Shown one piece after another: positions 21,720-61,200 of a stretch of DNA of 64,000 bases (within the stretch, counting starts at the first letter, position 1; every line of letters starts with the position of its first letter). The stretch comes from Bugula neritina. Taxonomy: Eukaryota; Animalia; Bryozoa. Made by a program: the position numbers and the translations under genes. The DNA lies in assembly GCA_964035545.1 (NCBI GenBank), contig OZ037767.1:22212628-22276627 (forward strand), in the 5' to 3' direction. The notes below the pieces were generated by a model. That model had not been told where the DNA came from. It saw nothing but the letters and a program-made list of their open reading frames with translations, and did no database searches.

Positions 21720-24700
21720 TTATTTTTTCTTTAGGACATTTGTTTCAAACTGCTTTTCCACGTTTCCAGCCGGCCAGTAGTTGGCAACGACATAAGTTTT
21801 CCCTGATGATGAGACAGCAACTCCAACTCCTACTTCCTTAGTTTCCTTCCACAACACTTGTGTAAAGTGACCTACAAATACCAACAGATAGGTTACACAT
21901 ATATTTACCAGAAGTAAGCCATTGTATTTACATGAAGAGTTTATTCAAAAGCATAAATAAGTTTGCAAAGAATATGCTTTTATAAACATATTTTTTGTGA
22001 AATGCTTTGCAAAGCAAGCGCAACACTAGTTGTCTGCTTTGATAATTTAGAAGGAAAGAAAATAAATGGCAAATTTGATAATTATATGCTGTGGCTTTAC
22101 GTTTTGGCTTTTTGGTGCTATATTACCAATGATAGCAGTAGTATCAATAACAATTATATTACTTTGTCACAAAACTGTGGGTAGCAGTGTGACGAGTTCG
22201 AAAAGTCTGGTAGTCAGAAGTGTATAGACAAGTAGCATACAGCTTGCTAATCCAGTTGTGAGTAAATAGAGTTGTGGATATAAGTAGACTTTATTCCTTT
22301 AGTAAGATATGCACAGATGAATTAATAAAAATGAACTCCGAGAATGAACTTATAAAAAGGAACTGATTTGTAAACACAACTGCCTCAGTATTTATAGTAA
22401 ACAAAACACTCTAGGACATTCTCAAGCATTCCAGTATAGAAGATTCTAGTAGAAAACATTCCTCACATGCCAATACTATTTATAGAAAATCAAAACAAAA
22501 CAAAACATTGGAATTTCCATGGTTATTTCGCAATTATTGCGCAACACCTTGTTTACATTGCTGGGCAGTAGTTAACATGACTAATGAAAACAATAACAAT
22601 GAACAATGACCCATCTCTTTGATCAGTCTAGAATATTTATGAACATTCGTGTATAATCATTAGGAAAAACCCGGTAAGTCTATAGGTATATGTCCCCTCA
22701 GAATTTGTGACAACCCCCCATTCTAAGAGAAATTATCTTGATCATTTCTCCTAACTACTTAAAATTCTGAGTCAATTCGACTTAGATAATCGGCTCCAAC
22801 ATCGTCCTTTCCTTTGATTGACTCCACCTTGATTCTGAAGTTCTGTAAATACATAGCCCATCTCATCACTCTGCTGTTTCTTACTGTACAGGTCCAACAA
22901 ATCATCTTGGCATTCTTCTCTTTCCTTATTGTGATCAATAATTCCAGCACCAGCAGCATCTAGAGTCATCACAGCTCCAACAGTCATAGAGTCGGTAGGT
23001 GTCTCCCGCTCAAAATATTTCTTCAGCATGTTGGCATGGTATGTTCTCCTCTTCCCTCTGATGTTGATAATGTAGTCATTCAGTCTGACTTTCTCCTCAA
23101 TATTGAATGGTCCTTGCCAATGCATCAGCAATTTATTTCCATTCGTAGGTAGAAGAATGAGCACTTTGTCACCAGGTCTGAAGTCTCTCTGCTTAGCTTT
23201 CTTGTCAAAATAGTGTTTGTATCTTTTTTGACTGTCTTTTAGCGAAGCTAATGCTATCTCCATCATGTCATCTAAACGCTCTCTCAATTCAAAAACATGC
23301 TGATAGCAGGTCTTGACTTCATCGGCAGTGTCTTCTTTTGTCCAAAGTTGTCGCAGGATGTACATTGGTCCACGCACAGTCCTTCCATAGAGTAACTCGA
23401 ATGGGGCGAAGCCTGTTGATTCCTGTGGGACTTCTCTATATGCAAATAGAGCCGCATTGATGAACCGATGCCACTGTCTTGGCTCTTTAGCACACAACTT
23501 TTTTAGCATATTCTTGAGGGTTCCGTTGAACTTTTCCACAAGTCCATTGGCCATTGCATGGTATGGTGAGGTAGGAAGTTGTCGCATGTCAAGTAATCTG
23601 GTAAACTCTTTCATGTAGTCCGAGATGAATTGAGTTCCTTGGTCGCTTATCACCTCCTCTGGTATCCCAACACGACTGTATATGTCAAGCAGCGCTTCAG
23701 CTACAGTAGCTGAGTCAATATTCTTCAATGGTGTAGCTTCAGGGTATCTTGTAGCATAGTCAACTAAAGTTAGGATGTAGCGATGTCCTTTCTCACTTGG
23801 AGGGTTAATTGGTCCGACTAGGTCTATTGCACATCTCTTGAATGGGGTGTCAATTAGTGGAGTTTCCTGTACTGGAACTTTCATGACTGAGCCTTTTTTC
23901 ACCGTCTTCTGGCAAATATCACATGATTGACAGAAACGTACGACATCTCCGTTTAGTCCTGGCCAGAAGAAGTTGGAAAGCACTCTATCAGTGGTTTTCT
24001 TTACTCCTAGGTGTCCGCTCATTATGCAGTCATGAGCTTTCTGTAGAACTTCCTTCCTCAGTGAACTGGGTACCATGAGTTGTTTAACAGGTTTTACACT
24101 GACGGACTTCGAGTCGGTGTACTCACGGTACAGAATCTTATTCCTCACCACAAACCTAGTGGTGCATCCCTTTTTCTCCTTCACTTCTTTTGCATCGAAG
24201 AAACGTTCCAATGTGGGGTCATCCCTCTGCAGTCTGGCTATTTCATCCTTCCCTATACTTAATGGGTTAGTATTTGAATCAATCTTCAGTGGTTTGTCTC
24301 CTGACTTTTCCTTGACAGCTTGAGCTCTTGTGGTTACGGCGCAGTCCTTCCAGTTTTCCAGCGGCTGGTCAGCTGATCTCGCTCCATCCACATTCCCAAT
24401 AAGCAGGTCACAAATCGTCTTGTCCATTACTGCAGCTTTGACGACACCATTGTAAAATGGTGAGCGTACTGAGATAAGTGCCCACTGAGCCTCCCTAACA
24501 CTTGCATCAGCCATATTCAGATAAACTGATTCTCCAGTTAAGTGTTGAGGTTGCACATACTTTGCATTGACTACAATGCAACCACAGCCGGTGTCGCGCA
24601 TTACAGTAGCTCGTTGGCCATTAACTTCCGCATCAAATATCGCTGTGCCCCCATCTTTGAATTTAGGTCCATTCTTGCAGACAGCAGCGTTGACAAACTT

Positions 24701-27700
24701 TTTACCATTTACTGTGATTTCCGTAGGTTCTTCCACTTTAGATGAGATTCCTGGATCTGTGACCACAGTCTTATTCTGAGTAGTAGCTATTGCAGCCGCA
24801 GCATGCACTGACCTTCCACCATACTTTCTGCAGTCTGAAGTATTGTGGTTGTTCATCTTGCAATGTGAACAGTACTTCTTCCCTTGCCGTGGGCAGTTAC
24901 GAGCAATGTGTGACTTATCTTTGCAGATGAAGCATGCCCCATCGCTTTTACTTCCTTGTTCAGCATTCATGCTACCGGCAGGTGTGTTTTCCATCCTTTT
25001 TGTATTAGTTTTCTTTGTCTTTGCTAGTTTCCTTCCACGAGCGTGCAAGAACAGCGACGCTGCATCACACATATCCTCACTGCTGTTGTAGGAACTTTGC
25101 TTTAAATGCACAGCTAGGTCGTCTGGGCATGACGATATAAATTGTTCAGTCGCCACTAGTTTGGCTATGTCCATGCCCCCTGAAAGCTCCACCCACTTGT
25201 GCACATAACTTTCTATCCTAGTGAACAGTTGGGCAGGAGTTTCATCCTCGTAAGCTTCTGCCTCTCTGAGCTTTTTTCTGTAGCCCTCTTGAGTCAAGTT
25301 AAAGCGCTCCAACAAGGCTTCTTTGACTTTTTTATAATCTCTACGATCGGTAGGTGACAACCGGATGTAAGCTTCTGTTGCTGTACCCCTTAGGTACTGA
25401 CTGAGATGGTAGGGCCAATCTCCCTTGTCCCAGTTACATCCTTCGGCAACCCACTCGAACCGCTCTAAATAGCTATCCATTTCATCCACCTTCTCATCAA
25501 AGAATGGTATTTTTGGTTTTGGTTTGTTAGCTATTTCTAACCTGGTGCTCTCATGTCTTGAGTGCTCCAAACTTGTGTTAGCTTTCAGCTTTTCCATATC
25601 TAATTCATGTTGTTGTCTTCTCTCTTCTGCCTCCTGGTCAGCTTTAACCTTGAGTGCCATTGCCTCCTGATCAGCTTTTATCTTCATCTCCATTAGGGCT
25701 TTCTCATTTTCTTGCCTGATCTTTTCTGCCTCACGCTCTAATCTACGCTCCTCTCGGTCCTTTTCTTTTTCCTCTCGGTCCTTTTCTTTTTCCTCTTGTG
25801 CAGCAACAATGGGTAGGTTCTTTTCAACAAAAGCTATGAGCTTGTCATCCACCAGTCCAAGATCTTTACCCATCTGTGTCATTCTCTCCAACAACGCCAT
25901 AATGTCTCAACAACTGTTAATTAATCCTGTGTATACTCACGTTGTAACTGATAACTTCCCTGTGTGCGACTGAGACTTCCCGGAGCAGCCCCCAATTGTC
26001 ACAAAACTGTGGGTAGCAGTGTGACGAGTTCGAAAAGTCTGGTAGTCAGAAGTGTATAGACAAGTAGCATACAGCTTGCTAATCCAGTTGTGAGTAAATA
26101 GAGTTGTGGATATAAGTAGACTTTATTCCTTTAGTAAGATATGCACAGATGAATTAATAAAAATGAACTCCGAGAATGAACTTATAAAAAGGAACTGATT
26201 TGTAAACACAACTGCCTCAGTATTTATAGTAAACAAAACACTCTAGGACATTCTCAAGCATTCCAGTATAGAAGATTCTAGTAGAAAACATTCCTCACAT
26301 GCCAATACTATTTATAGAAAATCAAAACAAAACAAAACATTGGAATTTCCATGGTTATTTCGCAATTATTGCACAACACCTTGTTTACATTGCTGGGCAG
26401 TAGTTAACATGACTAATGAAAACAATAACAATGAACAATGACCCATCTCTTTGATCAGTCTAGAATATTTATGAACATTCGTGTATAATCATTAGGAAAA
26501 ACCCGGTAAGTCTATAGGTATATGTCCACTCAGAATTTGTGACATACTTATACACAATCACTGTACATCCTGTGCAAGTGTTTATAATCATGCAGCACAG
26601 TTTGAGCTTGTGGTTTGAGTTTGATATAAAATTATATAGGATTCTAGTCAAGAGCATCACAAAGTGGACCTACACTATTGATTAAAACTTTTTAAAAATG
26701 TTGTTTACAAATTCAAACTTGAGCTTCAAATAATAAACATTATGGTCACTAGTATTTCTGTACTATTGTGTAATTTGGTTTAAGAACTTCAATCAAATTG
26801 AGCGTAGCAATGTTGTGTTACTACTTAAACTCTTACAGACCTGTGCTCATGCCAAAACCCGGCTCATCGAAGCTGTAATCTTGAATCTCATTATACCACC
26901 ACTCTACACCTAAAGAGTACAGAAATACAATATGAGATTAAAGATGGCATACGGGATCAAGCTGAGAACAAAACATGCACTGATAGTTATTTTAGTCATG
27001 GTGATGATCTTTTTGTTTGTAATGAAAAAGTTAGGATGTCTGGTTGCAATTGTAGTGAGATGATATCTTATATTTTAAAATTATATATGTACAGAGTTAT
27101 AATAAAACTTTACCTCGTTCTCTTTCTCCATTGTTTACCCCCATGCCATGCTCACTATACAAATTTTCTCCAGCATTCTCTCTTTCTTCTAAGGTTGTAT
27201 GCTTCATTTGGTCTATGCTTGCAAGGTGTTGGGCATATTTTGTTGCCATGTTGCAAAGCTTTGGTGACAGGGAAAGAGGTGGAGAACCATGCGAGGTCCT
27301 CAATTCATTGTGTTTTTCCAAGCTTTGTAGTTGCTGCTTGGTCCATTTTGTGCCTCCTTCATATGGCTCAGGTTCTGAGGGTAGTTTCTGTTCAGGCACA
27401 TCTGGAATTTGTCTATCATCAATATCAGCATCTTGTTCTGTTTCTTTTGATTTGCCACTGTCTTGTGCTACTTCAGCTTTTTTCTCATCCTCTGCTTTTT
27501 CCCTTTCAAGCCTTTCTTGTTCTGCTCTTTCTCTTTCAATCCTTTCTTGTTCTGCTCTTTCTCTCTCAATTCTTTCTTGCTCTGCTCTTTCTCTTTCAAT
27601 TCTTTCTTGCTCTGCTCTTTCTCTTTCAATTCTTTCTTGCTCTGCTTTTTCTCTTTCAATCTGCTCCTGTTCTGCTCTTTCTCTCTCAATTCTTTCTTGT

Positions 27701-29510
27701 TCTGCTCTTTCTCTCTCAATTCTTTCTTGTTCTGCCTTTTCCCTCTCAATCCTTTCTTGCTCTGCTCTTTCTCTCTCAATCCTTTCTTGCTCTGCTCTTT
27801 CTCTCTCAATCCTTTCTTGTTCTTCTCTTTCTCTTTCAATCCGTTCTTGCTCTGCTCTTTCCCTCTCAATCCGTTCTTGTTCTGCCTTTTCTTTTAAAGC
27901 TCTCTCTAGAGCAGCTTTCTCTTCTGCAACTCTTTTTATCTCCGCCTGAAAATGTAATGAGATATTCACAAGCAATTTTTTCAATAACCATTGAAAAGTA
28001 AAGCATCAATGACAGTTATTAAAGTATATATATCAAGTATTACATTTTATTACAATGATGATAGTATAAAAAATTGCAATACCTCATCAATGAAGTCGTC
28101 ACAACTTTCTCTATCACAATAGGATTCATGTTTTCCACCAATAATGCCACCATTGTTGACTACAAAATAAGTATAACACTTGATAACGTAGTAATTTGAC
28201 CAAATGCAACAACAAAATATAATTTTTCTTCAGCATGCAGGTAGTTTTTACTTTGTAGAGCCATATATGCAAAATACAAAACTATATATACTTCCGTCTA
28301 GCAGAGTATTTCAAACAATTAGCGCTGTTTGAAATTGTTAGTCCAATTATTAGCCTTTAGGCATTTCCAACTCTCACTGAATGTAAATTTTGTTTCAAAA
28401 GTAGTTGAACCAAAACAGATAAAAATGTTCTTCAAAGAATCATATAAATCGAAGATCATCCAGGTACAAAGATGTAAAATGTTAAATCATAGGCCACACT
28501 ACATGCTACAATATTTAATCAAAACAGCTTTTTAAATATTCTACACAGCTAGCACTATTACCAGATTAATTTAATGATGAATATTCCATTCTACAAGACT
28601 TGGGAACAATTTTTAGCAGTTTGAACTCATGAAATATTTAAATGTAAGTATGTGGTGTAAATGTGATCTCTTGTGCTAACTATGTAACTTAGTACTTCCT
28701 TAATAAGCTCAAGTATTATCCAACTATTCTAATTTGAGTCATTATGATAAAAATACACATTAGAATTGTCTAGTAGGTGTAAGTTTAGTTGGATGTTTTC
28801 TGCAGTTACCTGTTCATACATAACCTATAATCACATATTAAATGTGAGAGAACTCTTTTCTTGGGAGAGAAGAAGACCATAGCGCCAGTGGATGGATATG
28901 CCACAAGATCAGATATGAAAGTGGGAACATTGAATAGCAAGGACACAAGTAACAGAGTTGGATGGAAATAACTAATTGAGTTGGCTATGCAGAACCCGTT
29001 AAAATGGTTGCGGTGAGAAATAGTGGAAAGTAGTGAGAAACTATTTACATGTATTTGTTTTTACATTTTTGCTGCAGCTGAGATTTCATTGGTGCAATGT
29101 GAAAGTAACATGCTGATATATAAACTTAATAAATGTAGACAAAATTACTATGTTACCAATAATTAGCACTCTTGAGTTGTCATTTAAGCAAAATGCTGAT
29201 GAAGTAACTTGTAAAAACTAAAACCAGTTTGGTAGGTCTTGTAAGTAAATTGACAATTGACAATATATATTTATGAGAAGCTTTGAATTTCTGGGCTAAC
29301 CTGGAAAAAGCTCTAACTAATTAGTAATTGATAGACCTAAATCTTCCACCATTTGCAAATAAAACCTTTTACCCTTAATGTAACACAATGTGCAGCATAT
29401 TATACAGTATTTGACTTACTGAGCAGCAATGTTTGGTTGTCAATCTCTGGAAAGGTTCCGCTCTGGAGAAATGAGACACAGATGATAGCTAGTGCAGCCA
29501 GCGGAAACAT
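21720..29510 (-). CDS. Secreted CAP-superfamily protein: signal peptide + (ERAEQERIER)n + GAPR-1/GLIPR2-like CAP domain (~406 aa)
   Basis: Exons 29510-29420, 28159-28083, 27945-27114, 26909-26841, 21871-21720 (1221 nt). CAP motifs HNELRTSHG, GENL, WYNEIQDY, TGHFTQVLWKET..VGVG, YVVANYWPAGNV. Confidence 0.88.
22165..22712 (-). repeat. 3' LTR
   Basis: Direct repeat of 25997-26544; preceded on the minus strand by the PPT TAGAATGGGGGGT (~22713-22725). Confidence 0.95.
22772..25900 (-). CDS. Gag-protease-integrase polyprotein (1042 aa); RT absent, only the RNase H tail remains, in another frame
   Basis: Two CCHC knuckles (CFICKDKSHIARNC, CSHCKMNNHNTSDC), protease MRDTG, HHCC Zn finger, DDE core (IDLVGP, SDQG, VEKFN). 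RNase H end NSRVMRWAMYLQNF...GADYLSR at ~22885-22759. Confidence 0.92.
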   Translation of the reverse strand: MALLERMTQMGKDLGLVDDKLIAFVEKNLPIVAAQEEKEKDREEKEKDREERRLEREAEKIRQENEKALMEMKIKADQEAMALKVKADQEAEERRQQHELDMEKLKANTSLEHSRHESTRLEIANKPKPKIPFFDEKVDEMDSYLERFEWVAEGCNWDKGDWPYHLSQYLRGTATEAYIRLSPTDRRDYKKVKEALLERFNLTQEGYRKKLREAEAYEDETPAQLFTRIESYVHKWVELSGGMDIAKLVATEQFISSCPDDLAVHLKQSSYNSSEDMCDAASLFLHARGRKLAKTKKTNTKRMENTPAGSMNAEQGSKSDGACFICKDKSHIARNCPRQGKKYCSHCKMNNHNTSDCRKYGGRSVHAAAAIATTQNKTVVTDPGISSKVEEPTEITVNGKKFVNAAVCKNGPKFKDGGTAIFDAEVNGQRATVMRDTGCGCIVVNAKYVQPQHLTGESVYLNMADASVREAQWALISVRSPFYNGVVKAAVMDKTICDLLIGNVDGARSADQPLENWKDCAVTTRAQAVKEKSGDKPLKIDSNTNPLSIGKDEIARLQRDDPTLERFFDAKEVKEKKGCTTRFVVRNKILYREYTDSKSVSVKPVKQLMVPSSLRKEVLQKAHDCIMSGHLGVKKTTDRVLSNFFWPGLNGDVVRFCQSCDICQKTVKKGSVMKVPVQETPLIDTPFKRCAIDLVGPINPPSEKGHRYILTLVDYATRYPEATPLKNIDSATVAEALLDIYSRVGIPEEVISDQGTQFISDYMKEFTRLLDMRQLPTSPYHAMANGLVEKFNGTLKNMLKKLCAKEPRQWHRFINAALFAYREVPQESTGFAPFELLYGRTVRGPMYILRQLWTKEDTADEVKTCYQHVFELRERLDDMMEIALASLKDSQKRYKHYFDKKAKQRDFRPGDKVLILLPTNGNKLLMHWQGPFNIEEKVRLNDYIINIRGKRRTYHANMLKKYFERETPTDSMTVGAVMTLDAAGAGIIDHNKEREECQDDLLDLYSKKQQSDEMGYVFTELQNQGGVNQRKGRCWSRLSKSN
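25978..25994 (-). promoter_or_regulatory. Primer-binding site, tRNA-Pro-like
   Basis: TGGGGGCTGCTCCGGGA 2 nt inside the 5' LTR versus the canonical tRNA-Pro PBS TGGGGGCTCGTCCGGGA (2 mismatches). Confidence 0.8.
25997..26544 (-). repeat. 5' LTR
   Basis: Direct repeat of 22165-22712. Confidence 0.95.
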
Positions 29511-46224: not shown

Positions 46225-49200
46225 TCACGTGATTCCATGACTGTATAAAAGGATGATGGACAGAGTGAGCAGCAGTATTCGACCATCTGATTGGACAAGA
46301 CCAGCGCCTCCTAGCCCGTAAATGTCGCAGCTGATGCAAAACTAAAATTTCACAATTTTGAAAGTTTCAAGACAATGTTTAGTAGTGAATAGAGTTAACA
46401 TGGAAACAACAGGAAATAATATGAAAGAAAATGTGCCAAAATGTAATTATTAATTGATAGTAGTAGTAGGTGGATGGTCCTGGCTCACTCTTCTTCCACT
46501 GTCGAGTCTTCGACTCGCCAGTGTCAGAAGAGCGATCCAGGACGCATCCACCTACTACTACTCTATTAGTAATATTATAAAAAAGTAGTGTAATATTATA
46601 AAAAGTAGTGTAATATTATAAATTTTATTTAGAAAAATATTTTTTTTTAAATAAGAAAAAAATATTTTTAAGGTGGATGGTTCTAGCTCACAATATAATA
46701 CTATTAGTAAGATAATAAATTATTATACGCTGAGAATATAATAATTTAGTGTTTAAACGTTATAACTTGGAAATGTGGGTTGAGATTCTGTAGATTCTAT
46801 TATATTACCATCGCTCGTTGATATAACTAATTTATTACCAACTGCTCCTTGTAATTTAGGAATAGCGTAATTATTTATATTATTTATTGTAATAAGATCT
46901 GAAATATTTATACCCGTTTTTACAATATTACCATCACTCGAAAGCATTAATAATAATTTTTTAATTAGTTAAACTATTATAATAAAGTTTTAAATATACG
47001 TAATCAAAAGGTAGTGCATTAGTAGCGTCTTCACTCGGTGTATTAACAAGAATTACGTCATTAGGTTTATGACTCGGATAATTATTCGAAAGAGCTATTG
47101 TAAACGAAAAATTATTATTAGCGTTAACAACTTTATTAATATTTATTTTACTATACGGAACATTATGTTCAGCACCGCTAATAGTATAAAATATATTTTC
47201 TTTAGACTCGTCAAATGGATTTACGCTATTACGAATATGTAAACCTAATTTTTTATCAGTCCAATATAATTCTTTCGTTTTATTATTAGGTGAACTTTCG
47301 TTATAAAATTGTAATAACGCGTGCGTTATTTCTATAGATTTATTGACTAAATAATCATTAATTAAATCTACCGTAAAGCTATTAATATCTTCGTAATAAT
47401 AAAATTCGCGTTTAGGTATAATACTCGTAATATACGCTTTATTAGTCGTTATATTGACTTTACTAAATTTATAGATATTCATTTATAATTATAATAAAGT
47501 TTTATTAATACGTAATGAAAAGGTAACGCCGCGGCGGTTATTTCACTAGCGGGAGTATCGGTTAAAATTACGTCGCTAGGTTTATGACTAGGATAAGTTT
47601 TTGATAGCGCTATTGATATTGAAAAGTTTTTATTAGCTTCAATAACTTTATTAACGCTTATTTCGCTAAACGGGAGATTATGTTCGCTACCGCTTATATC
47701 ATAAAAAGTATTTTCATCGGATACTCCGAATATTTCAGCGCTATTTCGAACTTGTAAGCCTATTCGCTTATCAGTCCAATAAAGTTCTTTAGTATTGTGA
47801 GCTTGTTCACCGTAAAATTGTACTAGGATATTCGTTATTTCAATCGGTTCATCAACTAAAAAATCTTTAATTAACGTACCTCCGAATCCGCTAGAACTAC
47901 CGTCGTAATAAATAAATTCTGATGGAATTACGATATTTGTAATATACGGTTTTTCATTTATTATAGTGGCTTTAGCCGAATTTCCAAAAATATAAACCGA
48001 ACTCATTTATATAAGTAATTTATTTATAATTAATTGAGGTGACTCGTGTTTAGACATTTCTTTAAGCCAATATAAACACAAGTGTCCGCATATAACGGTA
48101 TTAAATTTTTGTACTCTTTCGGTATTATAAAATATAGGCGGTTTTAAATATTTCATTATTTCTAGCGGTGGGTGAAGTCCAAAACTATCGAAATAATATT
48201 TTTTATTTCCATTTTTATACCAAGCTACCCAATGAGTACCGTTACCCATTAAATCGTCTAAATTTAATATACCGCATTCTTTTTTACGCGGTTTATCGGG
48301 TAAATCGTTTCTTGAAAATACTCCTCTAAAAAATAGTATTTTTAACTTTTTAATCGTAAACTCTAATTCAATATTTGATAGAGCTTTATTCGGTAATTTT
48401 ATATTCATTTATTATAGCCGTAAGGAACCGTTGTTATACCGTCTTTGAGTATAATTCTCTTATCATCCTCGGCCGACAGAGCTACTTTATTTATAGTTTC
48501 AGCGTACATCGTATGCTTATGACTTCTTAACACGTTCATTGTTCTAAGCTGATCTCGCCGCGTTAATAAACACTCTTTATAATCATCAAATGTTATGCGA
48601 TTATCACGAGTTGTTTTATTAATACCCTTACATTTTTTCTCTTCTATATCATCCATCTTGTAAGAATATAATTTAGCTCTTAGGCCTACAAATTCCGTAA
48701 TTTGTTTACCGCCGGCTTCATCCTTAAACTTCCCTATCACTTTTTTATTTTTACCGGTTGGTATACCCGATTTATGATTTTTTGGATAATTACTCGTGTC
48801 AAATTTATTTTCAATATCTGGTAATATATCTTTATAAAAATCTTCTGTTTTTACGTGATACATTAAACTATCCGTATCCGTAAATAATAATTGCGCTTTA
48901 TTATTATATTTATGTTAAATATACTCGTAATGAAAGTCATACATAAGGATTTTACTAATATCCAAAATTGCGGCTCCCAAATATACGGGTTTATCAAACT
49001 TTAATTTAGTTACGTTCATATGAACGGCTATTAAATTTTCGGAAAATATAGTGAAGCTTTTAAAGTTTGGTTGATTAGTAAACTTTTTAGCTTCGCTTTC
49101 GCTAGTAACCAATTTAACGTTAACTCTATTACGAATATCTTCCATCGTTTTACCGAACACGGAATTATTCATTAGCTTAAAGAAATCTTTTTCAAAATCG

Positions 49201-52200
49201 CTTCGAGCTAAAGTTCTTAGTTCGGTATTTAATTTTATATATTTTTCTAACTTATTAGATTCATTAAAGGTTATACCTCTATGAATTTTTGTTAATTTTA
49301 AGCCATACATAAGGCATTGTTTTAACGCCTCGTAATGTATAATATAATTTTTTTTATTATTTAAGTTTGGCACTAACTTTTCTACTTTGTTAATCGTTAA
49401 CCTTTCGGGGCAAAATGGATAATCTTTATGCGAGTCGTGTAATTTTTTAGAATATTCTAAATCTACTTCTAAAAAGCTGGGCAGAAAATTTAAACTTTTT
49501 TCCAAGTTTTTACATCGCTTTTCAGTCATCCACTTAAAATTACCCGTAGGTAAATTTTTGGACATAGCCCAACCGTATAAATTATTAGCGTCTAAATAAG
49601 TAATATAACTGCTAGGTTCGCTAGCGTTATAATTTTCCATGTACTTATTATTGGCTTTAGCGTGTCTATGACTGATCATACTTACACCACCCCTAATAGC
49701 CTTTTCAAAGAAAAGTAGTTGGTTAACGTCGGTAATTGGATCCAACTTTAATTCGGTAGTTTTAAGCATAGCGTCCCAACTTAAACCCGGGGCCGTATAG
49801 TACCAAGCGGGATCTAATTTGTAATATTTTAAACACACGTTTCTAAAGTTTTCAAAAACGTCGGCTAAATGTAATACATCAACTTTCATATATAAGTTGT
49901 GATATTCTTTAAATGTTCTCATATTAAATTCTTGCCAAACTTTTTGAGCGTGTATATAATCTTCTTCCGAAATATTTTGCTCGGTTAAGCTTGAATAAAA
50001 CTTTTCTTTAGGTGGTAAAGACGTTTCATCCAACACGCTTAGATTATTAAAATAGTCATACGGAAATACTCCTTTTCTTAATACCAAGTCTAATTGTTTT
50101 TCCTTATAATATTCACCTAAGTGTTTAAAGTCGTCGCGTTTTAAATTCGCCACTAAACTCGCTAAATTAGAACTCATAAACTTATACGAGTCTAAAAATC
50201 GAATTTCACGCGTAACTTTAATTTTTTCACCTTCTTTATTGGTAAATTCGTCTACTAATAATTTTTTACTAAAAGATATATATTTTTCTTCGGTATTAGG
50301 TATACACGAAGGTTCACCGCCTAAATTTTTAATAAATAAGTGGGCGTCATAACCCGACAAATTATGAATAAATACTGGATAAAATTTTGGAACTTTATAA
50401 TTTAAATTACAATTTTTATGCGCGGCTCCTCTATAATTTCCGGTTAAGTGACAGTGATCTCTTACTCTGTCATTACTTAATTCTTCTTCGCATATATAAC
50501 AAATTTTGGCCAACTCAAAAAACTTTTGCTCGTTAGTCGTAATTTGCATAGTTTTAGCGAATTTATGTTTTTTATAAATATTTTTAATATCGAGTTCTAA
50601 TAGTCTTATAAATTGTTCGCCAATATCTTCGTCTTCAGTTTCTTTAGTATAACTTCTATAATTACACTCGCCGGTAATGCTTACTATATAATATCCAAAA
50701 CCCGACGGTTCGTGTTGTTGATATTGATTAGTATAACTTTCTTTAAAATTAGGATTACAGCCTTGTATAGGCTTTGTAAAACATTCAAAATCCGCGTATA
50801 CTACAAACGGTACTCTCATACCACGACAATAATGACTAGACTGAAATTTTATTTTATCTTCTAATTTTGGAAATGTCGTAGTCACGCTATCGTTTTTTAA
50901 GCACCAATCTTGATGCTTTTTTAATGATTCGTTAGATCGAAACGAATTCATACAATTTACGCAAATATGTTTAGCGTTAACGCGTTTATTTATTTGCGAA
51001 CCGAGTAATTTATTTAAATTTTTAATATACGTATAATGATTTTTTTTGCCATCAGTTATATAAAGTAAATTTATAATTTTATTCCGACTGCTAGTTTTTC
51101 TCCATAAATTTATCGTTTTATTGTCCCACATAAATACATTAATTCCTATTGAGGGATTAACTTTTTCAAAAGCGTCGATGGATTCTTTCGTAGCCGGAAA
51201 TTCTACTCCTTCCCATAATAATTTATTAACGTGCTCTTTATAATTACTAATTCTTTCAACATTTTTATTAACCGGATAAACTCCCATTAAAATGGCCCAC
51301 ATAAAGCATTTATTGTCTTTATTTTTTGGATTTATTACGGCTTTCTTTAATTTAATTTCTTTTGGAAGATCAATCCACGATGATCCGTTAAGAGGTTGAT
51401 ATTTATTAATATTAATTTCCATTTTTTTAATGGCTTTAAACGTCCAGCTACTTCCTTTCGCGTTTAATGAAGCAAAATTTTCTTTTATACGTTGAATTAT
51501 TTCATTGTATACTTCATTAATATTTGTAGAAGCTAATATAATTTCGACATTTGATGTAAATGGCATAGTTTCTATAATAATTTCTCCGGTACTTATATTA
51601 TGCTTTTTCATTTCGCAATATATAAATATTTTAACTTTTATAGTAGGTTTTAATAATTCTATTACATTTAATTTTACTAGTTTACTAAACGAATCTATAT
51701 CGTATTTGGGTAAACCTTTAATTTCATAAGTTTGAAACCAACCGTTAGCGGCTTGTTCTTTAAGTTTAGGCTGATTATATAAAGCCATAATTTTATCCTT
51801 AATTGGATTTATAATTTTTGTAATTGGCTTTATAACCCATTTTTTTATATTACGCGTAGTTTGCGTAAATATTTCTCGCATAATTTTTTTTACGGGTGTA
51901 GGTATTAACGGGGCTTGTCCTATATTTGGAACGGGTTCGTCCATAGGCGATAATAGCCGTATAAGTTCGGCTTTTTTTAATCGAGAATATCGTTTCAATC
52001 CTCTTTCTTTAGCTAAAGCTTTTAAAGCTTTTACGGTAATTTTTGTATTGAACTCCATTTATATAATATATTCTTTAATAGTAATATCAATTTTTAATAT
52101 TATTACTTATGTAAAATAAGTAATAATACTGAGAAACTAACGTGAGCTGTTTTCTTCTTTTAGTTTATAAGCTTCGCGTTTTAAAATACTTTTTATATAA

Positions 52201-55200
52201 AAATATTTATTAATGTTAGGAATTTGTTTTCTCGTTCTAAAATTAATTTCTTTAAGAGATATATTATTAATTACTGGTATATATAAATATTCGAGTAACG
52301 GTGTATATTTTTTTTGTTCGGCTTCAGCTATTAGTTTATCGAGTAATTCAACGGTAAGATCCATATTATAAAATAATAAAATAATAAAAATCATTTTTTT
52401 ATATAAATGGATTTTCGACGAGAAAAATTAGAACTCTTAAACGATGAAATTATTAAATTAGAAAACGAATACGAGCAAAAACTTAATTGTTTTAATTGGC
52501 TATCGAAATCGTTAAAAATAATTTCGGGATTATGCGGTACAATGAATTTAATATGCGGTGTTATTATTACGGCGTTATTAAACGCTAACGTTACTAAACA
52601 AACGTTATTACCATTATCTATAATAGTAAGTATAATGAGCGTAATTACTACTTCTATTTCTTCTCAAGATACTAAATTAATTAAATCTACGTTAATGTAT
52701 TTAGATATATATACCTTTATAAAAGATTCAAAATTAGAAATTAATTCTATGTTATCGAAATTTTTAAGCGACTCTCATATAGACGAAGAAGAGTACGACG
52801 CTATAACCGAAAAATATAAAAATATTAATAGCGTAATATCGGATAAAATAAGCGACATAATAATCGCTCGTAACAACGTTTGTTAATTACTTGCAAAATG
52901 CAATTAATTAAAAAAGGGAGTTCAATATAAAAATATCCGTATATTTATATATGTTTTCTTTAACTAATGTAAAGCGTCATTTCTTCTTTTTTCTATTTCG
53001 TCTTCGGCGTATTTTAGTTTAGTAAAGAATGACGGTATTCTAGCCGCCGCGTAATTCATTAAACTTACGTTAAGTTCTTGAATTATTTCTTTAGTTTTGT
53101 AAATAGTTTTTATTTTTATTTTTCCATTATCTTCTTTATAAATAATTTCTTTTTTATTATTATAAGTAATTTCTTCAAGTAATCCACATTCATTAGTTGA
53201 ATTATTCATTTCGTCTAATATATTAAATTTTTTATATATAATTCTTTCTTTAATATCACCGCCTTCGTATACTCGTTTTTCACAATCATTGTTTTTATAT
53301 ATCGTTTCGGTAATCGGGGTGCCGTCGAGGCTTTTATAAGTAATTACTGTTGACATTTATATATGTTTTCTTTAACTATAACAGCATGCCTAAAAGAGGA
53401 ATGTTTTTAAACGGACTATTCGGACCTAAAATTAAACCTTCACCTTTTATATAGCTAGAACCTTGTTTTAAATATAAACCGTTACCTTTCATTAAATTAG
53501 ACGACGCGACTGGTTTTAAAGTAATAGAACCGTTTAAATTAGGTTCTACGGAACATACGCATCCGCCTTTTTTCAAATAAAGACCTTTACCTTTAATAGC
53601 TCTTTCGACTCCGGCGCTAGCGGCTCCCGAAAGTACGCCGGGTATAATAGTTTTTAATAACGTAGGTATTACTCTCGTGGCTATACCCAATAGAGCTCCT
53701 AAAAATCCTCCGCTCATTGACGCGTTAGTTTTTACTAACGACGGAGACATTTCGAGCGTTATATTTTTTTTATTCGCGTTTAACGCTTTTAAAATATTAT
53801 CGTTTTGCGTTTTCGTAACGACTAGTTTATCATTTCCGCTTTCGAGAGGTAATTTAATAACGCAACCCTTATTGCTTCTATAAGCGTTCATTATTTTTTG
53901 TTTTTGCGCCTGCGGCACGTTTCCTATAATTTCGCAATAACCCATTTATATAATACATTAAACTTCTCTTAAATGAAATCTTATTGAAAGTTGTTCACCG
54001 CTAAGATCTAATAAATTACCTTTTTGATCGGTTACCGTAACGGTTAACGTCTTAATATATTTAACGTGAACGGGTAAGTATATTAAATTATGAGGTTTTT
54101 CTATTATTTTATATCCCGGACTAACGCTCGGAAAAAATGAATAGATAACGGGTTTATAAGTACCATCGATATAACTTCCGTTAATACAATCAACTTGTAC
54201 GTGTATAGCGTTTATATTTAAAATATTTACTATGTTCGTAGCTTCAATATAAGGTTGATTGTATATTGCCGCGTCAAAACCTAAAACGTCTCTTAGAGAA
54301 TTTTCAATGTTAAAATCTATCTGATAATTTTGTTTTAATTTAAGTATAATTCTAAAAGTTACTTTATTAGCTTGTAAAGTAATACCGTTTCTATTACCCC
54401 CCTCTTTTACTATTTCGTCTTGAATAGCTTCTTCTAATTGATCTAATTCATATACTCCAATTGGTAACGAAACTAAATACCACGTAATGCCACCGTCTTT
54501 AGACCATCTATAGGAATTTCTATCGGCACTAATGTTTGGAAAAGAATAAAACGTATCCAAACTAATAAGACACATTTCGTATTTTTTATTTTTATTTAAT
54601 TCTATAGGCGGATTAAGTTGAGTAATTATTCTCGTTTTAGTATCGGTAACTCCTATAGTCATCGTTTGTTTAGAGGCCGTATTATCAGCAATTTCTCTTA
54701 AAATTCTATTATCTATTTATATAACTTTTAAATTATTTCCATCGGAACTGAGAGACATAGTTTTATCCGATAAAATTAGCGCGTAAGCTTGAGTATTAGC
54801 CGGCACGTTTTGACTAAACTGAACTCTTAATTGAATATCGGCTACGCTACTTTTAAGAGCCTCGCTTTGCTTACTAACGTCTATTACGAACAAAGCGTAA
54901 AGATCTTTATATTCGGAAGGTAATACGTTTGAATAAGCGATTAGCTCGTTTATACCGTAATATTCTCCGCAAAACTTAGAAGCGTCTCCATACACTCTAC
55001 TAAATTTCATTTTAGCGAAATCTATATCGTAATCAACCTCGGGATACCGCTCGCTGTTTAGCATCGCGTATACGCTTTTAACGTTAACGTGATCGAATAC
55101 GGCCGGATTAGCCGTTTGACTTTCATTCTTATCCGTTTGAAAACCTACGATAATATATTTAGGTTTTTCGGTATCTCCTCTAGAACCCAAACGCCACGTA

Positions 55201-58200
55201 AAGTTAGTAGTTTGCGGCACCGCGATACTATCACACCATCTAGATCTATAAATTAGGGGTAGTTGCGCCTTACTTTCTATAATTTTATAGAGTTTATGCT
55301 TCATTTCAAAACTAGGCGTTACGTGAGGCATCCACCACGATACTTTATCTAACGTTATTTTTCCCGCGTCTACGCCGTTTGCTCTATAAATAGCGTTATC
55401 GTTAGTATCGCGTACTAGCGTTAATTGATGTTTTATACCGTATAATACTTTTTCGTAATCGTCGGCGAATCCGAACAAATGTCTGAGATCCACTTTAATA
55501 CTAAAAGTACCTTTAGGATCTGGCTTTTGTATAATATAAATTTGACGCGCGTTAAAACCTAAATTAGCGGCGGCAGCGGCTGCGGTAGTATCTTTTGACC
55601 ACAACTGATTAAGACCTCTCGACTTACCGTAGTCGTCGGGATAAGTTAGTAAACCCATCATGGTCGAAGCGTGTCCGGGATTATTTATATATATTCCAAG
55701 TCGTGTCCGTCGAGTTGATATCTAATACTTTTAAACAAATAAGCCATACCGTTATTCGTTAACGTTATTAAGTCGGCGTCGGCGTAAGCGGTTCCATCGG
55801 CTTTAGTTAAACGACCTTCGATAATCAAATAACTTTTACTCGGCTGAACGTACAAATCTTGCTGATTAATAACTATTCTAATTTCACTGGGAGTATTTAA
55901 ATTCGTTCCCGTTACGGGTTCATATTCGTGTACCTGATCGCGTTCTACGCTCGTATCGAGTACAATTTTTTGTGTAATATTTAGAGAATCCATTTATTAT
56001 AGTAAAATAATTTCTTAATAAGCTATAGCTTGTCCGCTTCCTTCTAAAATATTACTTATATTACTATTATTTAATATATTTTTAGTTTGATTAAGCTTTT
56101 GTAGTATAGCTTGACTTTTAGCGTTTAACTTTTTTTGTTTTCTTTTTTTAATCGCGTTAACAATTTTTTCACCGGCCGCGGTACCCGCTTTAGCTATAGC
56201 CTTTTTACCTAATTCTCTTACGCTGGAATTACTAGCTATTTTAGTTACTACATTTTTAATGGTATCAAATATTCCACCACCGGCGTAGTGTCTTTGTAAT
56301 CGTTGTCTTTTATCGTAAACGTACATTTATTATACGAGAATACTTTTATAATAGTCACGAGTAATAATTTTCATTCTAAGTAATTCGTCTAATATAGACA
56401 CAATTTCGTTTCGTACTCCCGTATTTCCGGCTTTAGCGCTAGAAATTAAAAGTTCGAGTCGTTCTACTAAAGCGTTAGGATCAGACGATAAATATACTAC
56501 TCCAACACCGACTTGCCTTTTAGCTTTTTTACTATCAGCGAGTTTCGCTCTCTGAGGATATAATTGTTCCCAAATAGGTCTAACAATATTTTTCCATTTT
56601 TCACTATTTTTATCTATGGGACCGTGTTTACTTTGATATATAGCGCCGCTATTATCGAGTATATTAGCGTAATTCGCTAAATCATTATCATCGTATCCTA
56701 TAGGCGTTTTACGCGTTAAAAGACTTAAAAGTCCTCTAGTCGCCAAATATTCTTCGTTTTCAAAAATTATTTTACCATCGTTAAAGCTTATAGGTTTCGT
56801 ACCAATAACGTGTCTATTACCATCCCACTTTACGTTATAAGCGCCGGGTTCTAAGCCAGCTAAAGCGTTTTGAGTAAATTCATCTAAATTTATAACTCCA
56901 TCCGTTATAGCCGGTTGAACATTATAATTGGGTAATGTAAGCAATTGTTTTAACGCGTCAGTCGTTTGAGCTTGCGAAGCAATTACGGGTTCAAAATATT
57001 TTTCTTGAGCCATCGCGGCATTTAATTCTCGCTCGCGTTCTCGTTTAAAATTTTCTTTTAATTTATTCTTTCGAGAAATAAAATCTTGTACGGTTTTATC
57101 TCTTTTTATAGGGTCGTGAATCTTTAAGTAACTCATTTATTATATATTAATTTGTGTCTACTTTTTATGGACACAAACACATTTGTGTCTACTTTTTATG
57201 GACACAAACACATTTGTGTCCACTTTTGTGTCTACTTTTTATGGACACAAACACATTTGTGTCCATTTTTGTGTCTAGTGTCCACATTTGTGTCCACATT
57301 TGTGTCTAGTGTTCACTATAATCGTTCTAAAACGTTTAAATTTACCCAAGAATTTTGAGAATCGGGATAACCTAACCATTTTACTAAAGCCTTTTTACCT
57401 TTCTTTTTAATTACGCGCTCTATTCTATACATTTCTTGACTCGTCTTTTGTAATTCCTGTTCGTAAAAAGATCCTTGAATTTCTTCTCCTCCCGAGTCAG
57501 TTAATTTATAAGTAGTCGGATTAGTATATAATATTTTACTTATAGTAAACACTTCCTCCGTCCATCTAACTGTATAACCTTTTTCAAACGTTCGTTTCTT
57601 ACGAGGTATACGCACTCTATCACCTATAGCAAATTTAGGTTTAGAAGGCGCGGGTAAGTTTGGATATAATTTTACGCGTACTTTATTTTCGTTAGAAGGA
57701 TTACTAGCTTCAATCGGTGTCATTCCAATAGACGAATGTTTAGTCTCGTTATATCGTTTTACTAAATCTTTTAGTACGTCTATATATTTATAAGTATTAT
57801 TAGCCGAAAAATATTTAAACATTCGCTCTTTCATTGTTCTATTCCACCTTTCTACTACGCTAGACTTTTCTTCATTTTCCGTAGAATATAAGTCTATTAA
57901 AGACTTTACGTCTTTGTTATAAAATTCTTTTCCCTTGTCAACCCATAAATGTTGTGGCTTACGACGAGTTAAAATTGTTTTTAAAGCTAAAGCCGTCGCT
58001 TTTCCAGTCTTATTTTTTAAAGGTATTATTCAACCGTATTTTGAAAACACGTCTATTACCGTTAGTAAATATTTATAACCGTTATTAAATTTAGCAAATT
58101 CAGTCATATCAACCAAGTCGGCCGCCCAAATATTATCGATACCCGATACCCAAACTCGTCTTTTACGAAATTTTTTTTGTACAGGTTTATGTAGTTCTTC

Positions 58201-61200
58201 GGCTAACTCGTTCGTCCATCCCCATCCTAAACGCTTTTTCGCTCCTATTATTGCCGAGGCAAAACGACTGTGTCGCTGTTCGGCGGGTGTAGGATTAGGT
58301 ATAGCTTTCAGTTCGTCTAGCATATTTTTATCGCATATTTCGTTTCTAGTCTTAGTATCTTTATTAAGCGCGTAACATACGTCGTGTCTCATGGCTATAG
58401 CGTCATCTCGATCTACCGGTTTACTCCATTCTTTAGGAGTCATGTCGTCATTTAAACGCTTATTTAATTTAGTACCCGGTCCTAAAAAATTATGGCCTGG
58501 ATAATGCAATTCAAAAGGTAAATTATTTATTAAATTATTCGCTAAACCCGACCCAACGAATGTAGTTTTTTTACATCCGCATTGACCGCAATTACCGTAA
58601 CCCATTAGTCTATTATTTTTACTTACTCTCTTTTCGTAATTAAGAGTTTTCGTTTTAGTTTTACACTTACAACAATACATTTATTATAATAAATGGAAAT
58701 AGAAAATCTGTCGTGGAAAAACGAAATTAATCGTAATAATAATCCTTTACTTCCTAAAAGTATAAGAGGTCTTATCGTTGGAAAATCTGGATGCGGTAAA
58801 ACTACGTTACTTTGTAACTTACTATTACAACCTAATTGGCTCGATTACGATAAACTTATGATTTACGGTAAAAGTCTTTCTCAACCCGAATATATAAATA
58901 TGAGGAAGGCTTTCGAACGTAAATTAACTAAAGAAGAAATTTTAAATTTTTTTAAAAATAGTGACGCGATAATAAATTCGGGTATAAACGTAAATCGTGT
59001 TTTAAAAAATAGTAGGGGTAACGGTAATATAGACGCCGAGTTTATCGAATCTAGTGACGACGTTTATGATCCTAGCGAATTAGACGCTAGTAATAAAAAT
59101 TTAATAATATTCGATGATTTAATGTTGGAAAAACAAAAAACTTGCGAAAGTTATTACGTAAGAGGACGACACAATAACGTCGATTGTTTTTATTTGTCGC
59201 AAAATTATTTCAAGCTGCCTAGAAATACTATTCGAGAAAACGCTAATTTTATTTGTTTATTTCCTCAAGACGGAAAAAATTTAAATCATATATATCAAGA
59301 TCACGTAAACGGAGATTTAACGTTAAACGAATTTAAAAACTTTTGTTATAAAGGATGGCAAAAACCTCACGGCTTTATTACTTTAGATCTTTCTTCCTCA
59401 AAAAATAATGGAAGGTATAGACACGGGTTAGACGAATTTTATATACCGTAATAAATGAGTGTTTATAAATTTGGTGAATCATTAGCGAAAGCTAAAAAAG
59501 AAAATTATATCGAAAGAGTCGTAACTAAAAATAATAACGTTTTTATACAATCTTTTAGTACAACGATTAATATAGGAATGTTATTGGGATATATAGTGGA
59601 TAAACCGATAGAATTAAAATACGCTTTATTAGAATTTCAACATCTTCCAGCTAATAATAATAATCCTTTATATTGGAAAGATAAAAATTTAACTTTAATT
59701 ATTGGTGATGTTAATAATCCTCTCGAACACAATACTAAAGAATATATAATTCAAGGAGGCGTTGCACGAGTAAAAATACCTATGTTGGAATATATTGAGA
59801 GCGATAAAAATATTGGATTAGTATTACACTGCTCAAACGATTATACTAGTCGTAAACCCAATGACATTACGGTTAATGACAACGCGCCTATAGCTTTACC
59901 GTTTGAATTAGTGTCGTTAAAACTTTACTACAATTATAAATGAGTGTTTATAAATTCGGAGGAAGCGAAAAAACAAAAATAGATACAAAAAAATTCGTTT
60001 TAATAAACGGTAGTAGTACTCTTACGGGTACATTAGATATGGGTGAAAATAAAATATCTAGAGTTATTAATCCGGTTGACGATCAAGACGTAGCCACAAA
60101 AAAATACGTTGACGATACGAGTATACCAAAAATACAAAACCCTGTTAATCAGTTAACTATATCAACCGACGATGGACGCGTTATAGATAGCGATTTAAAA
60201 GTTGATGATGTCGTTACAAAAACTAATGTATCTAGTTACGCCGTACCCCTTATACGAGACCCGAGTGAAAAATTAACCGTATCAACTAATACGGGTAATA
60301 TTGTAGATAGTAATTTAAGCGTTAGCGATGTTATTACGACTAATAATATAAATAATTTCGCTATAAATAAAATACAACCAGCGAATGAAAAATTAACCGT
60401 TTCGACTACTTCGGGTAATGTTGCGGATAGTAGTTTAAGCGTTAGCGATATTATTACGACTAGTAATATAAATAATTTCGCTATGAATAAAATACAACCA
60501 ATAATTGGAGGTAAATTATTAATGCTTTCGAGTGATGGTAATATTGTAGAAACAAATATAAATATTTCAGATCTTATTACAATAAATAATATAAATAATT
60601 ACGCTATTCCTAAATTACAAGGAGCAGTTGGTAATAAATTAGTTATATCAACGAGCGATGGTAATATAATAGAATCTACAGAATCTCAACCCACATTTCC
60701 AAGTTATAACGTTTAAACACTAAATTATTATATTCTCAGCGTATAATAATTTATTATCTTACTAATAGTATTATATTGTGAGCTAGAACCATCCACCTTA
60801 AAAATATTTTTTTCTTATTTAAAAAAAAATATTTTTCTAAATAAAATTTATAATATTACACTACTTTTTATAATATTACACTACTTTTTTATAATATTAC
60901 TAATAGAGTAGTAGTAGGTGGATGCGTCCTGGATCGCTCTTCTGACACTGGCGAGTCGAAGACTCGACAGTGGAAGAAGAGTGAGCCAGGACCATCCACC
61001 TACTACTACTATTGATATATAATTTTGCAGTTGATATTATTAACCTATAATCTACTAGGAAAATTAGCTGATTTCTACATCAGTCTTGGTAATTCATATT
61101 AATTGAAAGATCGGAAACCTAGGCCAATAATTTATAAAATTTTTTAATAGTATTTTGGTGAGAGATTGAATTTAAATGTGGTAACTACAAAAGTTGAATA

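Follow-up and report, generated by a model that had tools for sequence, protein, structure and literature searches.

The Mavericks/Polintons of animals may be autonomous viruses of the nucleus, transposons, or parasites that exploit larger viruses; the question is unsettled, and a locus in the bryozoan Bugula neritina raises it again: what reads the short sequence ATAAATG that stands at nearly all gene starts of one such element? The window analyzed here is a stretch of 64,000 nucleotides of contig OZ037767.1 (assembly GCA_964035545.1, positions 22,212,628 to 22,276,627 of the forward strand), and all coordinates refer to it. The element lies at 46459..61010 (14,552 bp, ∼92% coding) and has the inverted repeats of ∼496 nt and the 6-bp duplication ATTGAT on each side (46453..46458 and 61011..61016) that are hallmarks of Mavericks/Polintons. 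ATAAATG opens 14 of its 16 genes, or 14 of the 15 that start with ATG. The explanation that we favor, at roughly even confidence, is that a co-infecting helper virus of the Nucleocytoviricota, the nucleocytoplasmic large DNA viruses (NCLDVs), would use the motif as a transcription initiator for its RNA polymerase.

An earlier note on this DNA, made from the letters alone, had listed 14 such starts among 16 genes, together with an ATAAATA at the equivalent position of the penton gene. All of these coordinates are confirmed; the ATG opens the open reading frame (ORF) in each case, and the penton variant lies in frame at 54714-54720 on the minus strand. The motif is rare elsewhere, occurring at 3 of the 276 other ATGs within the element (Fisher p = 3e-19 against 14/16 gene starts). 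A comparison with composition-matched ATGs, as the note proposed, and with ATGs in host DNA gives a similar result: where the sequence upstream of an ATG is at least 80% A/T, ATAAATG is found in 4 of 306 cases, and in host DNA it is found at 22 of 1,958 ATGs, versus 14 of 15 starts. ATAAATG is also present on lineage-specific genes, for which 85 related loci contain no homolog, indicating that the motif was acquired or kept after these genes were gained.

The motif is not explained by stop codons of neighboring genes. Eight of the 14 motif starts are either 12-179 nt from their neighbor or divergent to it, two contain a second TAA after the true stop, and three overlap the preceding gene through ATGA, with TGA as the stop and ATAA within coding sequence. 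Only the start at 48006 takes its TAA from an upstream stop, so the previous claim that at least eight starts are independent of stop codons was an understatement. TAA is present in all 14 motifs but at only 9 of 16 element stops (p = 3e-4), the rest (7/16) being TAG or TGA. The motif extends to a longer consensus, TAT(A)ATAAATG, in which 11 of 15 starts have T at -8. TATA occurs within 12 nt upstream of 14 of 15 starts, compared with 3.2 in shuffled sequence, and is positioned at -8..-5 rather than near -30; TATAWAW at -60..-21 is found at 2/15 element starts and at 0/112 starts of the second lineage described below. The 30 nt upstream of the starts are 84% A/T, versus 69%. Whereas a purine at -3 is the favored translation context (PMC2241899), 14 of 15 starts have T at this position, the opposite of the usual arrangement. 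These results support the conclusion that ATAAATG at gene starts reflects neither chance, nor a stop codon, nor the usual translation context.

The layout of the starts resembles that of NCLDV post-replicative promoters. In vaccinia, the late initiator, TAAAT(G/A), and the gene start overlap (PMC5294985), and a TAAAT initiator joined to the start codon, a feature of poxvirus post-replicative genes, is present at 14 of the 15 ATG starts here. Vaccinia intermediate promoters consist of an A/T core (-26..-13) followed by a spacer and a TAAA that is read by the polymerase itself (PMC12917281), and polymerase slippage adds poly(A) leaders in vaccinia and in yeast virus-like elements (PMC6211774). 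The element shares with vaccinia and the yeast pGKL elements the TAAA(T) initiator at the start codon and the A/T-rich upstream region, but those genomes encode their own RNA polymerase, and the 15 starts of the element show no fixed upstream core. In African swine fever virus (ASFV), the late 5' untranslated region has a median length of 9 nt, with a spacing unfit for a canonical RNA polymerase II (Pol II) complex (PMC7163114). ASFV late genes have TATA at the initiation region and short leaders, an arrangement that the TATA within 12 nt at 14 of 15 starts may parallel, although the invariant part in both the element and the second lineage is ATAAATG. The start architecture therefore appears to be NCLDV-like in general, and only the strictness of TAAATG would point to poxviruses. 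The strict form favors a pox-like helper, and the TATA just upstream keeps asfarvirus-like and mimivirus-order helpers open as candidates.

At 58678..58695, two ATAAATG starts stand back to back in a perfect 18-bp palindrome, CATTTATTATAATAAATG, with one gene beginning at 58680 (minus) and the ATPase gene at 58693 (plus). As the earlier note stated, the two ATGs are 12 nt apart. The palindrome is the longest of the 15 in the element that reach at least 12 bp, and the first genes of both divergent pairs carry the motif. The gene at 58680 had been called an integrase; an integrase N-terminus is present in frame, but the ORF opens with a DUF5679-PLA2 domain. Upstream of the ATPase start the first ATG lies at a distance of 133 nt, and upstream of 58680 there is none within 400 nt.

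An exact scan for CATTTATTATAATAAATG returned 22 viral contigs, six of them labeled as giant-virus metagenome-assembled genomes, a count that comes without a chance expectation and includes several near-duplicates or phage. The palindrome starts an ORF of at least 130 aa in 8 of the 22, and in the giant-virus contig L116 it starts divergent ORFs of 279 and 139 aa. Among the contigs bearing it, L098 encodes an NCLDV capsid and VLTF3, and L107 has two Rpb5 genes. Tailed-phage contigs also hold the palindrome, where it starts no gene. At giant-virus starts away from the palindrome, TATA lies within 12 nt in 18 of 26 cases. Separately, the palindrome opens a protamine-like (KRRSP)n ORF in three large viral contigs (L097, L106 and L110).

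Relatives of the element were gathered by ATPase alignment (the best 80 of 428 confirmed metagenome loci, 13 viral loci and 2 genome-bin loci). Ortholog starts were kept when near the expected position, and L002, L032 and L070 were removed as duplicates. The relatives use two start-signal dialects. In a second Maverick lineage, with an ATPase ∼51-59% identical to that of the element, ATAAATG is found at 88 of 112 ortholog starts against a background of 1.6%, with T at -3 in 97/112 and T at -8 in 89%; TATA is much less regular than in the element. In the 41 other loci, which come from varied assemblies, position -3 is A at 125 of 136 starts, and TAAATG occurs at a single one of the 136. Tandem genes of these A-type relatives carry AAAAWWT at -32..-11 in 38 of 74 cases (8.8 ± 2.7 in shuffled sequence), and their layout is a core, a G/C-tolerant spacer and an A/T-only end, with TA...AAAATG as the initiator. 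In ATPase trees, the element groups with proteins for which no DNA was fetched, apart from the second strict lineage.

Loci L084-L093 were considered as virophages and rejected, having no capsid match and a protease 36-43% identical to that of the element; they were used only as aquatic Polinton-like relatives. TATA lies within 12 nt of 49 of their 58 starts, with no purine bias at -3, compared with 2 of 19 starts in tailed-phage loci. The label poxvirus-late-like in the earlier note is apt for the TAAAT initiator at the start, but poxviruses are not singled out, because giant-virus contigs share both the palindrome and starts with TATA next to the ATG, and the aquatic Polinton-like relatives have TATA starts as well. 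No NCLDV hallmark was found among 19 non-core ORFs scanned in related loci, and a single-protein scan of viral contigs and a phage collection gave no result.

The PLA2/integrase and ATPase genes are also head to head in the relatives, 20-45 nt apart (median 24, n = 39, duplicates included), and only 7 nt separate them in L052 and L083. The earlier note held that this interval leaves no room for Pol II promoters. A short A/T-only spacer is indeed kept in the 39 related loci, but promoters could sit within the opposite gene, and the argument is for this reason suggestive and not a proof. As a further observation on the spacers, those of 20-26 nt before the ATPase in L023, L025, L048 and others of the second strict lineage contain an extra TAAATG, forming CATTTA-T-TAAATG; the same 13-mer constitutes both starts in L052 and L083.

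Because the starts have the geometry of post-replicative promoters and a Pfam search of the element found no gene for an RNA polymerase, transcription by a helper is the best explanation. Initiation by the helper polymerase would fall on the A-run that immediately precedes each ATG; every gene would have its own mRNA, and hardly any leader would be templated. Slippage on the A-run would add a poly(A) head and so place A at -3, which would allow the DNA to keep T there. Post-replicative factors would serve all genes, those for the polymerase and integrase included, and the presence of the signal on all genes fits a parasite that enters an established virus factory. The element would then be a helper-dependent, virophage-like parasite of a larger virus. 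Beyond the sequence pattern itself, we infer this mechanism throughout. There are precedents for parts of it: mavirus and Sputnik share the late promoter motif of their helper (PMC6428243), and entomopoxvirus occlusion bodies have been found to contain elements of the mavpol2 capsid clade (PMC11296320). A role for the element in host defense against the helper, also raised in the earlier note, is possible but unsupported, and we found no evidence for it here.

Several results weigh against helper transcription. The proposal of the earlier note that a Nucleocytoviricota polymerase transcribes the element agrees with the promoter layout, but neither a transcription start nor a poly(A) head nor a helper virus was seen, the material being assembled contigs only. 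One contig of a run guessed to be RNA (X12, depth 2.1) spans 58615-58873 across the palindrome and may be DNA or read-through. Hallmark genes of coral polintoviruses are expressed in both control and heat-stressed colonies (PMC11131425). The second strict lineage consists of 39 loci from five assemblies, mostly near-copies, and was grouped after inspection, and the A-rich dialect taken alone could be explained as a host translation context. A single clade for the element and the second lineage is not rejected (p-AU 0.24), so the strict motif may count as one origin. The AAAAWWT core is found at 0 of 15 element starts, which show no fixed core, and where ORFs of giant-virus loci do not start at the palindrome, only 4 of 26 start with TAAATG. 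An apparent avoidance of internal TAAATG (5 vs 15.8 expected) proved to be mostly a codon-junction effect (5 vs 9.1 once controlled) and is absent in relatives (20 vs 23.9 and 35 vs 34.8). A scarcity of T6 runs on the sense strand (7 vs 14.2) was likewise set aside as a terminator signal, A6 being equally scarce in relatives.

A possible, though doubtful, alternative is that host Pol II, alone or with an element-encoded factor, transcribes the element in the nucleus from compact A/T-rich promoters. The 5' ends would then be very short or would overlap the opposite gene, and ATAAATG would be a lineage-specific initiator or start context. This alternative is consistent with an integrated element bounded by a clean target-site duplication, with the few upstream ATGs at the divergent pair, with the A at -3 in 125/136 starts of most relatives, and with the coral polintoviruses, which are expressed without a reported helper (PMC11131425). 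Contigs of five runs guessed to be RNA also agree with it, many diverged copies being represented over 18-24 of 30 bins; missing coverage of the flanks and outer repeats was given no weight. A search among these contigs for loose ends in A-runs found 0 among 8 listed for 58450-60100 and 0 among 22 of 33 for the whole element, a check with almost no power given a single contig over the palindrome. However, T at -3 in 14/15 starts of the element and 97/112 of the second lineage, and TATA at -8..-5 instead of ∼-30, are not what Pol II would lead one to expect. Coding DNA shows no avoidance of AATAAA (49 vs 47.6 expected), and TBP, TFIIB and VLTF families are not found by Pfam among 19 ORFs.

It is improbable that the motif acts in translation, on long read-through mRNAs in which an in-frame TAA ends upstream reading and ribosomes reinitiate at the ATG. 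TAA directly precedes the ATG in frame at all 14 motif starts, 7 of 15 gene junctions overlap or are at most 3 nt apart, and contigs bridge the junctions at 59455 and 59940. Coupling of this kind does not account for a motif that is always TAA when true stops are TAG or TGA in 7/16 cases, for its presence at the first genes of both divergent pairs, or for the conservation of T at -8 as well (11/15, and 89% in the second lineage). Moreover, relatives with the same gene order mostly have no in-frame stop (1/136).

We regard as quite improbable a helper from among the large DNA viruses of the nucleus, similar to a baculovirus or nudivirus and equipped with a late RNA polymerase of its own. Such a virus would have direct access to the integrated copy, and two Spodoptera Mavericks were mobilized in baculovirus-based protein production (PMC8502044, PMC11296320), but the invariant letters are TAAATG and not TAAG. 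The baculovirus late initiator is TAAG. Very improbable is a relic or by-product, arising from A/T composition and gene packing or as an unused inheritance from a helper-dependent ancestor: the element is ∼70% A/T and the palindrome also occurs in tailed-phage contigs, starting nothing, but composition-matched ATGs carry the motif in only 4/306 cases and lineage-specific genes have it, and a chance origin is largely refuted.

The gene set of the element is Maverick-like, and the element is not placed among the Lavidaviridae. The left inverted repeat (46459..46954, plus) starts with AGTAGTAGT, and its opening 454 nt match the right copy (60515..61010, minus) exactly; the right copy takes in the end of the fiber-like gene. 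A double-jelly-roll major capsid gene (54717-55993, minus; motif 55991..55997; PF21738, E 3e-52), an A32-like packaging ATPase (58693..59451, plus; PF04665, E 2e-8) and an adenovirus-type protease (48007-48408, minus; motif 48406..48412) are present, the protease match being weak and below the cutoff (Peptidase_C5, PF00770, E 7e-4). A profile of nine capsids, compared for virophage-type capsids, matched no solved capsid at E 1. The ORF at 57316..58680 (minus) joins the DUF5679-PLA2 domain in frame to the integrase N-terminus and ends with a chromodomain. An integrase of retroviral type is indicated by this chromodomain, found by Pfam in the element's own fragment, and by the homologous ORF of L118, which contains rve and chromo, with rve just under the cutoff. 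The PLA2-like gene (PF08398, E 4e-9) is a hallmark of the alpha adintovirus/mavpol2 Mayetiola class as described in PMC8502044. Two named homologs come from Mytilus and Watersipora.

The DNA polymerase gene, a 1,047-aa ORF (48405-52058, minus; motif 52056..52062), has homologs in 18 related loci. Pfam found Rho_N and endonuclease VII in it and, at E 0.01, no match to the PolB family; its translation contains what we take to be PolB-like motifs. The penton-like ORF (53958-54662, minus) has its first ATG at 54662 and, in the present copy, no start codon at the motif position; it has no Pfam family match, and the label comes from its position and the earlier note. The present copy is interrupted in the polymerase near 48915, the capsid near 55685 and the integrase near 58030. 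A conserved DUF8207 protein of 268 aa (56330-57136, minus; motif 57134..57140) has a predicted fold of long helices and a small beta domain, and a fold search against 48,161 chains gave no clear match and no transcription-factor fold. The conserved pX-like core protein of 189 aa (53376-53945, minus; motif 53943..53949) has PF05829 annotated on 1 of 120 homologs among the matches listed.

The smaller ORFs carry the motif as well: 130 aa (52964-53356, minus; 53354..53360), 103 aa (56015-56326, minus; 56324..56330) and 159 aa (52407-52886, plus; 52403..52409). The last diverges across a 42-nt gap from an ORF of 75-85 aa (52137-52364 for the 75-aa form, minus), whose likely start is the variant TTATAATATG at 52362..52371; an alternative start, AAAAAATG, lies at 52394, with the same ORF end at 52137. 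Three paralogs form a family, namely the ORFs of 173 aa (46961-47482, minus; 47480..47486), 175 aa (47479-48006, minus; 48004..48010, the sole case in which TAA is the upstream stop) and 162 aa (59455-59943, plus; 59451..59457). The family is rare, with 17 matches in 1.84 billion proteins. The three paralogs (162-175 aa) and the product of the fiber-like gene (59940-60716, plus; 59936..59942), which has tail-fiber similarity in PHROGs, have in common the N-terminal motif (V/I)Y(K/I)F(G); fibers of related loci open with VDKFG. By analogy to the adenovirus fiber, we presume that this motif could be a penton-docking peptide.

In the relatives, the integrase N-terminal motif was found in 26 of 47 examined (element included), and in 21 of these 26 it is out of frame with the upstream PLA2 ORF, 13 in -1 and 8 in +1. 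The out-of-frame integrases mostly have no Met of their own and often open on an A-run (for example L001, L009, L015, L033, L047 and L094), and in four, the element among them, PLA2 and integrase are fused in frame. The offset could be due to programmed frameshifting or slippage, and many copies are degraded. Some relatives encode a DUF2738 protein (L119:988-1752, L002:11498-12145), a family of giant viruses, which may reflect an exchange of genes with NCLDVs. Cargo of the second strict lineage includes a matrixin-like metalloprotease (L025:5994-6791 and seven other loci), and the L025 gene also starts with TAAATG. L118 (16,929 bp) is an entire element with inverted-repeat ends and no host flank, and L094 and L095 are Maverick contigs within bacterial genome bins, where they are likely mis-binned.

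Direct repeats of 31/43 nt (57151-57313) fill the longest intergenic gap, downstream of the integrase. The observed/expected CpG ratio is 2.07 in the element, 0.38 in host DNA and 0.14-1.41 in relatives, and the CpG excess was dropped as evidence because relatives do not show it. The flanks are CpG-depleted (0.38) and carry tandem repeats and a Gypsy-like ORF, features that, like the homologs from Mytilus and Watersipora, suggest an animal host. Elsewhere in the window, a Gypsy-like long terminal repeat retrotransposon (22164-26295) consists of a 1,042-aa ORF between identical direct repeats (22164 and 25996); the start of this ORF, the single host-side example, has A at -3. Two host ORFs with 15-nt repeats (10884-11792 and 27097-28005, minus) encode charged helices of EKERL/ERAEQ type, and the second ends in what may be a CAP-like segment, a resemblance for which no match was obtained.

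Among known systems, the alpha adintoviruses or Mayetiola-class Mavericks (PMC8502044) share with the element a polymerase, an rve-type integrase with chromodomain, the ATPase, protease, capsid, PLA2-like gene, fiber and inverted repeats. The element departs from them in the in-frame joining of PLA2 to the integrase N-terminus and in having three broken genes. AHEV_PLV1 and CBEV_PLV1, proposed as poxvirus hyperparasites, have a Maverick-related capsid of the mavpol2 clade (PMC11296320), but were found in insect occlusion bodies and have divergent replication modules, whereas our element is a canonical integrated Maverick whose link to poxviruses comes from promoter sequence only. Mavirus, Sputnik and Gezel-14T are likewise small integrating double-stranded DNA elements with the promoter motif of their helper (PMC6428243, 10.1101/2022.07.28.501842). 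They differ in having protist hosts, Mimiviridae-type helpers, other capsid lineages and other motifs (TCTA, AAAATTGA), and in that their helper dependence has been shown by culture. We found no report of the ATAAATG motif in Mavericks/Polintons in the literature covered, with subscription papers and part of the adintovirus supplement outside its scope. The word promoter is absent from the main texts of PMC8502044, PMC11296320, PMC11131425, 10.64898/2026.10.13.758929 and 10.64898/2026.06.19.733378; in PMC11296320, motif is also absent from the text and promoter from the supplement searched. Promoter mimicry by virophages and poxvirus-associated Polinton-like viruses were already known, and what is new is the motif in a canonical Maverick.

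If helper transcription is correct, the element works like a provirophage, while still being a Maverick and not a lavidavirus. We put forward more tentatively that PLA2-bearing Mavericks in general, which are widespread among the genomes of invertebrates, may be endogenous virophages, each lineage with the promoter dialect of its own helper and no gene built for the host nucleus. Strict TAAATG would then correspond to a pox-like helper, and the core with TA...AAAATG to another NCLDV. The dialect would predict that marine invertebrates harbor pox-like viruses yet to be discovered and that animals possibly inherit an antiviral defense. A uniform NCLDV-style start signal would provide a way to sort Mavericks by lifestyle from their DNA and to predict the kind of helper, and parasitism of the virophage type would reach from protists to the canonical Mavericks of animals.

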